Sequence record: PV682554.1
Direction: 5' to 3' (one strand)
Length of the DNA: 64,000 nt
Source: Escherichia phage 92CQ
In this document: piece after piece, positions 32,583 through 54,981 of the stretch
How positions within the stretch are numbered: position 1 is the stretch's first letter
Layout of the letters: each line of letters begins with the position of its first letter
Notes under the pieces: model-generated
What the model was told of the DNA's origin: nothing
Seen by the model: only the letters and a program-made list of their open reading frames with translations
Databases searched by the model: none
Position numbers and translations under genes: made by a program

Positions 32583-32611
32583 TTGACTTTAGATCTATCT
32601 GTAGGTAGAGT
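32583..32611 (+). promoter_or_regulatory. sigma70-like promoter TTGACT-N17-TAGAGT with AT-rich upstream tract
   Basis: TTGACTttagatctatctgtaggTAGAGT about 40 nt upstream of prs. Confidence 0.5.
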
Positions 32612-32650
32612 AGAGAACATAAAGTCCTAACTCAACTAAGGAGATAAAGA

Positions 32651-33544
32651 ATGAAAGTTAGTATTCTGCATAGTGTTGACTGTTATGTTACTGATGTAGA
32701 CGTTAAAGTGTTTACATTCTCTGGTGGAGAACAACATGTTCAATTAGATACGAACCTGTCGGGTTTCAATCATGCTACAGACAGAATCTTACTCACTTTA
32801 GAAGTAAGATCTGCTAAAGACTTGATGACTTTGGTTATGACTAAGAATGCATTGGACAATATGCTATATCATAAACCATATTGTGTTGATTTACTCATGC
32901 TGTATGTACCGTATGCACGACAAGACAGAGTGTGTGAGCCTGGAGAAGCATTCGGAGTTAAAGCATTTGCTTCTATAATTAATTCATTAAATTTCTCACG
33001 TGTTATCGTTGCTGATCCACATAGTGATGTTACTCCAGCAGTGTTTGACAGACTCTGTGTAATACCTCAAGAAGAGATTGCTTACGAAACTTTAAAATGG
33101 AAGTTACGTATGGAGAATTTTGCTCTTGTTAGCCCTGATGGTGGTGCTCTTAAGAAAATATTTAAATTATCTAAGAAAATGTCTTTAGATGTGTTCTGTG
33201 CAGAGAAGGTTAGAGATACCGCAACAGGTGCTATTGTTCGTACAGACATTTCTGTACAGGATTTCAATAAGCGTAACCTGATGATCGTAGATGATATCTG
33301 TGATGGTGGTAGAACTTTTATTGAATTAGCTAAAGTGCTACGTGCTCGTAACGCAGGTAAGATTGAGTTGTATGTTACACACGGTATCTTTTCTAAAGGT
33401 CTTAAAGAGTTAAGTGAGCACTTTGACTGCATTCATTCCCTTAATGTGTGGGAAGATAACATCCAAGAAGATTCCGGTGTTCTTGTTAAGAATCAGTCAG
33501 ATTTGCAGCAACAAATTGTATCTCCATACGTGTGGAATTTTTAA
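32651..33544 (+). CDS. prs: ribose-phosphate pyrophosphokinase (PRPP synthetase)-like
   Basis: PRPP-binding loop LMIVDDICDGGRTF; AAGGAGA RBS. Confidence 0.7.
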   Translation: MKVSILHSVDCYVTDVDVKVFTFSGGEQHVQLDTNLSGFNHATDRILLTLEVRSAKDLMTLVMTKNALDNMLYHKPYCVDLLMLYVPYARQDRVCEPGEAFGVKAFASIINSLNFSRVIVADPHSDVTPAVFDRLCVIPQEEIAYETLKWKLRMENFALVSPDGGALKKIFKLSKKMSLDVFCAEKVRDTATGAIVRTDISVQDFNKRNLMIVDDICDGGRTFIELAKVLRARNAGKIELYVTHGIFSKGLKELSEHFDCIHSLNVWEDNIQEDSGVLVKNQSDLQQQIVSPYVWNF

Positions 33545-33554
33545 ATAATAAGTG

Positions 33555-33583
33555 TTGACAATAGGGAGTATGCTTAGTAAGAT
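33555..33583 (+). promoter_or_regulatory. sigma70-like promoter TTGACA-N17-TAAGAT
   Basis: TTGACAatagggagtatgcttagTAAGAT upstream of nadV. Confidence 0.45.
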
Positions 33584-33615
33584 ACTCCCACACTAACAAA
33601 CAAGGAGACATAACT

Positions 33616-52914: not shown

Positions 52915-52933
52915 GTAATACGGAGGATTACCC

Positions 52934-54913
52934 TTGTTAGAAATTAACACTTCCAAGATTAAGAATACAGTAACGTTTACTGTAGATAAAGACAGTTTAA
53001 AAAATACTAAAGACGCAATTAAAAACCTTAAAACTTTTACAGAATCTATTGAACCATCTTTAAATATGACTAAAATGCGTCGTCAGTTTAAAAGTATGGA
53101 AGAGTATGCTAAAAGAATAAGGCAGCAAATGTCAGGTCTTGGCGGCGGTAATCCTCCACCAATCCCACCAACCGGAGGTTCAAGTGGTGGTGGAAAAGGA
53201 GGAAGTGGTAGAGGTGGTTCTGGATCTTCTGGAGGACGTAAGACACCAGAGGAAAGAGCCGCAGAAGCCGCCGCTAAACGTGCAGCACTTGCTAATATGA
53301 AGCAAGACGATTTTAGTTTTAAAGCTATGCCTTTTACAAAAGCAGACAGCAGAATTCTAGAAAAATCTAAAAAGATTGTAGAAGAAACTGTTGAACTTTA
53401 TCGTAAAGGTGTAATCACTAGCCAACAAATGAATAATACTTTGGCTAGACAGTTAGAAGAACTACGCAGATCTCATAAAGAGAAGAATGCACAACTTCTT
53501 GATGAAGAGAGAGCTAGACGTAGAATTGCCCGTCTGCAAGAAGCAGAAGATAAAAGAAGACAGCGTGTTCGAGAAAGAGAAAGAAAGGAGTTCGAACGTC
53601 AGCAAAGGAGAGAAAAAGAAGCAAGACAGCGAGATAGACAACGTAAGCTATCTGGTGTAGGTAATGCTGCTATTGCTCTTAACCCTGCTATGTTTGGTGC
53701 TGCTCTTTTAGGTGCTGGTTTATATCAAGGTATAAGCAAAATAGCTGAAAGTATCACAACTGCGGCAGAACGTATTAATATGGTTAGTAAAGGTGGTCAG
53801 AACGTACAGGTAAACCCTAATGCAATTTTAACAATGCGTACTTGGGGTGAGATGAACGGTGTAGACTCTGCCAGCATTATTAAAGCCATTGACAATATTA
53901 AAGACGTTCGTGAACGTTTAGGTAATACTGTACTCCACTCTGAATTTGATGAAAAATCAGGTAAATGGAAAGGTGGAGATAGTGGTATTAATGAAATCAT
54001 GAACCAATTTGGTTGGTCGAAAGAAGATGTTGCTAAATTCCAGAACAGACCTTTAGACTTTGTTCAAGCACTTGTTAATGAAGGTCAAAAAAGAGGAATG
54101 AACTCCGCGCAAATTGGTCGTTTGATGGAAAACCTTGGTGATGACTTAATGCACTACCAACGTATGTTTTTGGATAACGGTAAAGAGTACATGAAAGTCT
54201 TGGATATGTTAAAAAATTCAGGAGCAACTCTTAACGATGAAAACATCAAAGCAGCACAAGATTTTGTTAAGCTAAGAGCACAAATTAGTGCAGCAGGAGA
54301 AGGTTTTACCAATAACTTACTTATAGGGTTTATGGATGGTTTAAAATCTGCACCAGATTTTGCAGAGAATATGAAAACTTTCCAAGAAGCTGCTCGTGGT
54401 CTTGGTGAAATGTCTGGTAGTATTGTAAGTAGCCTTGCAAAAATTGCGAAATATTTCCTTGATTTTTCAAATAAGGTTGGGCCAAAAAACAATACTAAAG
54501 AAGCTGTAAGAGATTATTATAATGGTACGCAGTATGGGTACGATGCACAGGTTGGTGGTAATCCTTGGGCTTATTGGCCTATTGGAAGAGATCAACATAA
54601 ACCTGAAAATCAACCTTTAGGTGACTTTGATAGTAGTTTCTTAACTAGTGCCTTAAACCCAAGTGCTTCTAGTATCGGTTACAATAGACCTGATTTAACA
54701 GCATCTATGCTAACACCACGCCAAGGTGTTCCAGTACCGTTAAGTGTAGAGAATACGGTTGTTATCCCAGACAACGCATTCCAGATTAATGTTATTCCAG
54801 ATGGCTATGGTTTTAGTAATTATCTAGATGCGACAATGAATACCAGTTTTAGTAACTTCTCACAAGGTTTAACTCTTCAGTTAAGCAGTGGACAATCTTC
54901 TACTGGTGGTTAA
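52934..54913 (+). CDS. tail tape measure protein
   Basis: 659 aa; Gly-rich tract, long Arg/Glu/Lys coiled-coil-like segment, hydrophobic Gly/Ala segment; follows G/GT pair. Confidence 0.65.
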   Translation: MLEINTSKIKNTVTFTVDKDSLKNTKDAIKNLKTFTESIEPSLNMTKMRRQFKSMEEYAKRIRQQMSGLGGGNPPPIPPTGGSSGGGKGGSGRGGSGSSGGRKTPEERAAEAAAKRAALANMKQDDFSFKAMPFTKADSRILEKSKKIVEETVELYRKGVITSQQMNNTLARQLEELRRSHKEKNAQLLDEERARRRIARLQEAEDKRRQRVRERERKEFERQQRREKEARQRDRQRKLSGVGNAAIALNPAMFGAALLGAGLYQGISKIAESITTAAERINMVSKGGQNVQVNPNAILTMRTWGEMNGVDSASIIKAIDNIKDVRERLGNTVLHSEFDEKSGKWKGGDSGINEIMNQFGWSKEDVAKFQNRPLDFVQALVNEGQKRGMNSAQIGRLMENLGDDLMHYQRMFLDNGKEYMKVLDMLKNSGATLNDENIKAAQDFVKLRAQISAAGEGFTNNLLIGFMDGLKSAPDFAENMKTFQEAARGLGEMSGSIVSSLAKIAKYFLDFSNKVGPKNNTKEAVRDYYNGTQYGYDAQVGGNPWAYWPIGRDQHKPENQPLGDFDSSFLTSALNPSASSIGYNRPDLTASMLTPRQGVPVPLSVENTVVIPDNAFQINVIPDGYGFSNYLDATMNTSFSNFSQGLTLQLSSGQSSTGG

Positions 54914-54920
54914 TGCATAA

Positions 54921-54947
54921 AGCCTCGCTTCGGCGGGGCTTTTTATT
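54921..54947 (+). terminator. rho-independent terminator
   Basis: GCCTCGC-ttcg-GCGGGGCtttttattt. Confidence 0.7.
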
Positions 54948-54951
54948 TGTC

Positions 54952-54981
54952 TTGACAAAGAGTTGTTTTTCGTGATAAAAT
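54952..54981 (+). promoter_or_regulatory. sigma70-like promoter TTGACA-N17-ATAAAA
   Basis: cTTGACAaagagttgtttttcgtgATAAAAt; weak -10. Confidence 0.4.

Follow-up and report, generated by a model that had tools for sequence, protein, structure and literature searches.

How are the genes of the rightward arm of a phi92-like bacteriophage read: through promoter signals of the host RNA polymerase, or through a specificity that the phage has altered? The question is raised by a 64,000-nucleotide (nt) stretch of Escherichia phage 92CQ (sequence record PV682554.1; the whole stretch is called the window below). The original prediction described ten plus-strand sites in it that combine a TTGACA -35 hexamer with a recurring non-consensus -10 hexamer, and offered both explanations. 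The window belongs to a virulent phi92-like myovirus (Stephanstirmvirinae, Justusliebigvirus) with a genome of 148 kilobases (kb), and is about 98% identical to phi92 over the region in question. Thirteen sites of this architecture are present between 32,373 and 54,981; they are enriched over chance, lie on the coding strand and almost entirely between genes, and are conserved in diverged relatives. It is very probable that these sites are promoters read by unmodified host sigma70 RNA polymerase, with both the recognition and the start positions predicted from the letters of the DNA.

The ten coordinates of the original prediction all carry the -35, spacer, and -10 elements on the plus strand when checked directly on the sequence, and a scan with a sigma70 weight matrix added three sites that the prediction had missed (32373, 35342, and 39312). 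The matrix frequencies were taken from general knowledge, and the scores serve as a heuristic only. For comparison, the phages ESCO5 (Phapecoctavirus) and FKP3 (a Klebsiella Justusliebigvirus) were used, which are 70-80% identical to the window around the sites, together with the more distant V18 (Vequintavirinae); the comparison spans three to six genomes. The candidate promoters, and the terminator that precedes the last of them, are given below with the spacer length between the two hexamers and any TGn extension of the -10 in brackets; open reading frame is abbreviated ORF, and tRNA stands for transfer RNA.

32373-32401, plus strand: promoter-like site in the divergent control region, TTGACA-17-(TGc)TACCCT; score 13.1, intergenic; found also in ESCO5 and FKP3, where ATGCTACCCTA is invariant.
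32583-32611, plus strand: candidate promoter, TTGACT-17-TAGAGT, 40 nt 5' of the ribose-phosphate pyrophosphokinase gene (32651); 95% A/T in the upstream 22 nt; FKP3 has TTGACC-17-TACACT.
33555-33583, plus strand: candidate promoter, TTGACA-17-TAAGAT, 5' of the nicotinamide phosphoribosyltransferase gene (33616); FKP3 has TTGACT-17-TAATCT.
35342-35370, plus strand: candidate promoter, TTGACT-17-(TGa)TAAGAT, 5' of the 73-residue ORF 35421; score 12.9; kept in ESCO5, FKP3, and two metagenomic relatives.
35763-35792, plus strand: candidate promoter, TTGACA-18-(TGc)TAAGAT, 5' of ORF 35823; FKP3 has TTGACA-18-(TGa)TAAGAT.
36332-36360, plus strand: candidate promoter with the top score of 15.4, TTGACA-17-(TGt)TATAGT; a tRNA-like gene (36372-36450) follows the -10 after 11 nt.
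36472-36501, plus strand: candidate promoter, TTGACA-18-(TGt)TAGAGT; 15 nt separate the -10 from tRNA-Ser(TGA) at 36517; candidate counterparts have TAGATT in ESCO5 and TAGAGT in FKP3, with orthology judged from similar upstream sequence only.
37944-37973, plus strand: candidate promoter, TTGACA-18-(TGt)TAGAGT; the -10 is followed after 11 nt by tRNA-Gly at 37985; counterparts have TATAGT in ESCO5 and TAGAGT in FKP3, with diverged spacers.
39312-39340, plus strand: candidate promoter, TTTACA-17-(TGt)TATCCT, directly 3' of a terminator (39265-39289) and 5' of ORF 39361; score 11.5; ESCO5 has TTGACT-17-TAAGAT and FKP3 TTTACA-17-TAGAAT.
42761-42790, plus strand: candidate promoter, TTGACA-18-(TGt)TAAAGT, in the gap between the large terminase and portal genes; FKP3 has TTGACA-18-TAAAGT, ESCO5 TTGACA-17-TATTAT, and V18 TTGCCA-17-(TGg)TAGAAT.
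44455-44483, plus strand: candidate promoter, TTGACA-17-TAGACT, in the gap that separates the portal gene from the head-module gene that follows (44520); the hexamers are the same in ESCO5 and FKP3.
49038-49066, plus strand: weaker candidate promoter, TTGCAA-17-TATACT, 5' of gene 49081; score 10.7, predicted leader 7-9 nt; hexamers retained in ESCO5 and FKP3, spacer diverged.
54922-54945, plus strand: putative intrinsic terminator 3' of the tape-measure gene and directly 5' of the next site, GCCTCGCTTCGGCGGGGC followed by TTTTTATTT as read from the sequence; also in ESCO5.
54952-54981, plus strand: candidate promoter, TTGACA-18-(TGa)TAAAAT, 5' of gene 55029; score 14.8; ESCO5 has TTGACA-18-(TGt)TACAAT, FKP3 TTGACA-18-(TGt)TATCAT, and V18 TTGTAA-17-(TGa)TACAAT.

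The -35 element matches TTGACA at all six positions in nine of the thirteen sites, at five positions in three, and at four in one. Of the ten sites in the original prediction, eight have the exact hexamer, with 32583 matching at five positions and 49038 at only four. The spacer is 17 nt long at eight sites and 18 nt at five. All thirteen -10 hexamers have the form TAnnnT, with the thymines at -12 and -7 and the adenine at -11, and a TGn extension stands directly 5' of the hexamer at nine (P=4e-9). The 22 nt upstream of the -35, where an UP element would be located, average 78% A/T, as against 65% in intergenic DNA generally (P=7e-4); AAAA is present there at 8/13 sites, compared with 20% of random windows, and 35342 and 54952 lack the A/T tract. 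The base preceding the -35 is C at seven sites and G at four. The leading c that the original prediction had included in its motif holds for six of its ten sites and fails for the other four; in the classical sigma70 consensus tcTTGACa the -35 is likewise preceded by C. All are sense-strand sites; twelve lie wholly between genes, and the remaining one (77% intergenic) shares part of its length with the end of a gene. The distance from the start of the -35 to the start codon or tRNA is 41-94 nt, with 278 nt for 32373. Three of the -10 hexamers are separated by 11-15 nt from the 5' end of a tRNA, and 39312 and 54952 directly follow terminators.

The pattern TTGACAN{17,18}TANNNT has 17 matches in the window, of which 14 are on the coding strand, compared with 3.15±1.88 in 100 dinucleotide shuffles, none of which reaches 17. 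In the half of the window with rightward genes, 11 of the 17 sense TTGACA hexamers are located in intergenic DNA, which makes up 16% of the bases (P=8e-6); the corresponding antisense fraction is 1/9. The eleven intergenic sense hexamers were chosen without reference to the -10, and nine of them are followed by TAnnnT after 17 or 18 nt (P=6e-10). The weight matrix finds 12 intergenic sense sites scoring at least 11 in the same half, where about 0.5 are expected (P=5e-13). The best scores of individual intergenic gaps are bimodal: 14 gaps within 32-55 kb reach at least 9.8, and the remainder score at most 7.9.

Promoter-grade sites occupy the same gaps in ESCO5 and FKP3. Their locations are fixed by the flanking genes, and the probability of a chance match in a 100-nt gap is about 1%. 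Over 12 orthologous sets from three phages, pairwise identity is 93% in the -35 hexamer, 87% in the TG, and 100% at positions 1, 2, and 6 of the -10 (90/90 pairwise comparisons), compared with 66% at -10 positions 3-5, 49-63% in the spacer, and 53-56% in the 20-nt flanks; these percentages are partly circular, because the sites of the relatives were picked with the same weight matrix. Since positions 3-5 drift in the manner of spacer and flanks, the constraint is TAnnnT and not a special TAGAGT or TAAGAT motif. Orthologous -10 hexamers read, for example, TAAAAT/TACAAT/TATCAT, TATCCT/TAAGAT/TAGAAT, and TAAAGT/TATTAT, which rules out TAGAGT/TAAGAT as a specific signal. The recurring hexamers of the original prediction do exist (TAGAGT three times, TAAGAT twice, and TATAGT, TAAAGT, TAGACT, TATACT, and TAAAAT once each among its ten sites, with TATAAT at none); they are not conserved as such. 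In the Vequintavirinae phages V18, SSBI34, and CB7, whose portal protein is about 41% identical, the gap 3' of the portal gene contains TTGCAA-17-TGnTAAAAT, and V18 has further putative promoters 3' of its terminase and tape-measure genes.

Every conserved feature of the sites maps onto a known contact of RNA polymerase, and the sites lie in coding-strand gaps that are also occupied in diverged relatives, which gives good support to the first explanation of the original prediction, host sigma70 promoters. The alpha C-terminal domains would contact the A/T-rich tract at about -40 to -60, and sigma region 4 would bind the consensus or near-consensus -35, set off by the 17-18-nt spacer. The TGn extension, where present, as it usually is, would be contacted by sigma region 3. 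Sigma region 2 would read T-12, A-11, and T-7, the sole bases kept in the -10. In sigma70 promoters A-11 and T-7 are flipped into pockets of region 2 and T-12 is read in the duplex, and these are the three most strictly read bases. The predicted start lies about 7 nt 3' of the -10 hexamer, whose central bases would be free to vary because the contacts with the -35, the TG, and the UP tract already give ample binding energy; selection on the core may be relaxed or slightly negative, since the sites often combine a -35, an extended -10, and an UP-like tract. The core may even be held off-consensus to let the polymerase escape, and the promoters of tuned strength proposed by the original prediction are in this respect plausible. 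Strong early promoters of coliphages are built similarly: T7 A2 (TTGACA-17-TAAGAT), T7 A3, and lambda PL join a consensus -35 to an off-consensus -10 in which T-12, A-11, and T-7 are kept.

Leftward genes for nucleotide metabolism, recombination, and dTDP-sugar (deoxythymidine diphosphate sugar) synthesis extend from position 1 to about 32.3 kb. From there the genes run rightward, beginning with ribose-phosphate pyrophosphokinase and nicotinamide phosphoribosyltransferase and continuing with the tRNA cluster (36.1-38.9 kb), lysis-region genes, large terminase (40673), portal (42855), scaffold and major head genes, sheath, tape-measure gene (52934), and baseplate genes. The 13 promoters would re-start transcription along this arm, several of them directly after terminators or terminator-like hairpins, for the NAD (nicotinamide adenine dinucleotide)-salvage genes, tRNA sub-clusters, lysis-region genes, and portal, head, neck, and baseplate genes.

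Several points weigh against host sigma70 recognition of the whole set, in addition to the circularity of the identity percentages. No start-site, transcriptome, or in-vitro transcription data were found in the literature for phi92-, phAPEC8-, or rV5-like phages. At 49038 the -35 is weak, and transcription would begin inside the Shine-Dalgarno sequence GGAG. The -10 of 32373 (TACCCT) is invariant together with its flanking bases, which is unusual among the sites and may hint at an additional function. Finally, consensus -35 promoters in front of virion genes would leave the timing of late expression unexplained.

The peculiarities of individual sites bear on the alternative that some of them primarily serve another role and resemble promoters only secondarily. 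The RNA elements near the predicted starts, of which the first belongs to this alternative, are:

44464-44505, plus strand: RNA hairpin of 18 base pairs, three of them G-U, with UUUUUAU after it; -18.6 kcal/mol, z=-6.1.
42802-42823, plus strand: stem-loop near +5 of the transcript predicted for the portal gene, -14.9 kcal/mol, z=-4.2; hairpins of different sequence occupy the same place in ESCO5 and FKP3.
54984-55010, plus strand: stem-loop at the 5' end of the transcript predicted from 54952, -12.3 kcal/mol, z=-4.3; ESCO5 has a hairpin of different sequence in the same place.
35357-35415, plus strand: long-range helix between CTTCGTGA, just 5' of the -10 of 35342, and TCACGAAG, a segment that overlaps the ORF 35421 Shine-Dalgarno sequence.

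The hairpin 44464-44505 encloses the -10 and the predicted start of 44455, and about 60 nt around it are almost invariant in the window, ESCO5, and FKP3, as would be expected if a terminator or processing hairpin were the primary function. It resembles an intrinsic terminator for portal transcripts, and transcripts that started inside it could escape termination. At 32373 the conserved part could be a regulatory box: CGAGCGNAGCGAG lies about 15 nt 3' of ATGCTACCCTA, which includes the putative -10 TACCCT, and both are invariant in the three phages within diverged surroundings (32392-32430, plus strand). At 49038 the predicted start within GGAG is also compatible with a translation-initiation region. 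At each of the three sites the hexamers and spacing are nevertheless promoter-grade, one site could fulfil both roles, and the Vequintavirinae keep a promoter of different sequence, lacking the hairpin, in the gap downstream of the portal gene. A primary role other than promotion at these sites is a minor possibility.

A second alternative, a phage factor that alters -10 recognition or aids melting and leaves G/C-containing cores such as TAGAGT, TAGACT, and TAAGAT as its signature, is improbable. G or C occupies -10 position 5 at 9/13 sites, compared with a background of 37% (P=0.019); the frequency in E. coli promoters is about 28%, against which P=0.002. The fraction is 6/9 when only the nine sites picked independently of the -10 are counted (P=0.07 against background), and the excess is weak. 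TATAAT occurs at no site, but with about 13 independent sites and an expectation of 0.4-2 this absence is not significant, so that active avoidance of the consensus was rejected. In the early region, the annotators of phi92 pointed to several putative transcription regulators, and the authors of the rV5 genome proposed an Srd-like anti-sigma decoy (PMC3606486). Against such a factor, the core of the -10 drifts freely between orthologs and T1, A2, and T6 stay constant, the -35, TG, and UP elements correspond to the usual contacts of sigma70 and alpha, and the aligned sites contain no class-specific motif or extra conserved block; the four promoters of the virion module are indistinguishable from the metabolic or tRNA ones. 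The phage-modified specificity suggested by the original prediction is left without support. The third alternative, functionless compositional chance in an AT-rich genome, can be dismissed as already contradicted: bare TTGACA (50 compared with 60±7) and loose sigma70-like matches at 9 of 12 positions (68 compared with 60±8 expected) are at chance level, whereas the strict bipartite pattern is more than five-fold enriched, specific to the coding strand and intergenic DNA, and present in the same gaps of relatives.

Promoters of the classes employed by other phages were also considered and rejected. Phage T4, a large virulent myovirus without its own polymerase, fills the same role of expressing virion and metabolic genes with late promoters (TATAAATA, dependent on gp55/gp33) and middle promoters (with a MotA box). 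In the window TATAAATA occurs 5 times compared with 6.6±2.5 expected and never in front of virion genes, and the sites described here have a -35. The aligned sites contain TTGACA at -35 and no TGCTT of the MotA box (a/t)3TGCTT(t/c)A at -30; TTGCTT was read only at a weak site, 39739. A single-subunit RNA polymerase of the T7 or N4 type would require a shared block of about 20 nt, and none exists: spacers and flanks vary from site to site and have drifted among orthologs.

Host-type promoters have been predicted in related phages. Phage rV5 has 33 predicted promoters across its genome, in front of all gene classes (Table S4 of Kropinski et al. 2013, PMC3606486), and its authors considered that re-programming of the polymerase may not occur (PMC3606486). 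The rV5 promoters share with the present set the near-perfect TTGACA, the 17-nt spacing, frequent TGn, and a variable TAnnnT (TATAGT, TAGGAT, TAAGAT, TATACT, TAAACT, and others; PMC3606486), both sets being predictions only. By inspection, rV5 P064 closely resembles the V18 sequence that is the counterpart of 42761. Phage rV5 belongs to a different subfamily, the Vequintavirinae, and its virion-gene promoters have a weaker -35 and a better -10 (TGgTAAAAT), whereas the same gaps have a perfect -35 here. Table S4 also has eight promoters with TGgTAAAAT, which the authors called T4-like 'late' promoters (PMC3606486). Their motif TggTAaAAtA reads as a plain extended -10 (TGnTAAAAT), and they are probably ordinary sigma70 promoters; at sites of this type in V18 (12887, 14562, and 24739) the -35 hexamers TTGCCA, TTGCAA, and TTGTAA are recognizable.

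In the genus Certrevirus the motif AAAA(N3-4)TGTTGAC(N17-19)TATAAT has been described (Buttimer et al. 2020, PMC7344957). It resembles the present sites in its UP-like A-tract, consensus -35, sigma70 -10, and genus-wide occurrence in related myoviruses (PMC7344957), and no phage RNA polymerase has been reported for CB7 (PMC7344957). The Certrevirus motif, however, is reported to be concentrated in early and middle regions and has the consensus TATAAT, whereas the sites described here reach into the virion module, and their -10 cores deviate from consensus. In E. coli itself the -35 and extended -10 usually substitute for one another, and a typical promoter holds about 6.5 bits (PMC1807945). 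The phage sites are composed of the same elements with the same spacing; by contrast, they commonly carry both a -35 and an extended -10.

RNA structure is not a general property of the sites. Inverted repeats bracketing the start site are not enriched over 600 random positions (Mann-Whitney P=0.70), with 44455 (top 0.2%) and 35342 (1.7%) as the only outliers. A stable hairpin at 33551-33594 (z=-3.3) encloses the promoter at 33555. The helix upstream of ORF 35421 is kept in five diverged sequences, including ESCO5 (about 4735-4800) and FKP3 (about 4745-4808); RNAalifold run on the five finds three pairs changed on both sides, counted over the whole predicted structure, and one sequence with a broken pair. 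ORF 35421 may be translated only from its own promoter, because both arms of the helix would occur only in read-through transcripts, whose ribosome-binding site would be hidden; RNA begun at the 35342 promoter would leave that site exposed. The arrangement resembles the logic found at T4 lysozyme, soc, and I-TevI. The GenBank record of ASO2A labels the hairpin 3' of the terminase gene, the counterpart of the stem-loop at 42802-42823, as a terminator. In FKP3 a perfect 12-bp inverted repeat (TTGTACATCAGT/ACTGATGTACAA) at 28626-28680 encloses the whole promoter 3' of the tape-measure gene. The box CGAGCGNAGCGAG appears to be flanked by stems of different sequence in the window and in ESCO5, and both it and ATGCTACCCTA occur only once in the window; they may serve as an operator, as an RNA element, or as a terminator for leftward antisense transcripts.

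The divergent gap 32242-32650, scanned for a clean leftward promoter, yields a best match of only 9.7. Sites of the same architecture occur on the minus strand of the leftward arm at 752, 6504 (TTGACA-17-TGaTAAAGT), 12452 (TTGACA-17-TGcTAAGAT), 23889, 26242, 28404, and 31931. There are 14 sense-strand matches scoring at least 11 in that arm, about four-fold more than the approximately 3.3 expected; the tight packing of genes there places the majority of them within coding sequence.

Other observations concern the genes around the sites. The tRNA-like gene at 36372-36450 (plus strand) matches the Rfam tRNA model with 40 bits and has an apparent UCU (Arg) anticodon loop; it is missed by ARAGORN and unannotated in phi92. 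A perfect 178-nt direct repeat (window 36619-36796 and 36924-37101, spaced 305 nt) duplicates tRNA-Ser(GCT), of which phi92 has a single copy. A remnant resembling a T-arm and acceptor stem is located near 38760-38790 and ends in GCCA. In FKP3 the large-terminase gene (13036-16419) is split by an insert with an HNH endonuclease.

The finding is sound but ordinary, because such promoters have already been predicted in related phages (rV5, Certrevirus), and it reveals no new mechanism. It lends comparative support to the earlier suggestion of the rV5 authors that this group does not switch promoter classes. In the regions examined, the records of phi92, ESCO5, FKP3, Nernie, and ASO2A contain no promoter annotation for this part of the genome, the nine promoters annotated in ASO2A being located elsewhere. 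The 13 promoters and the terminators provide a conserved map of the rightward arm of phi92-like phages, of use for annotation, phage engineering, and the design of transcript mapping. It is conceivable, if doubtful at present, that the phage runs its whole programme, virion genes included, from consensus -35 promoters of the unmodified host sigma70, with timing and dosage set by interleaved RNA elements and not by promoter class. If this were true, the elements setting the timing would include the terminator-like hairpin at 44464-44505, the helix that would hide the ribosome-binding site of ORF 35421, and the covarying hairpins at the predicted 5' ends of transcripts.

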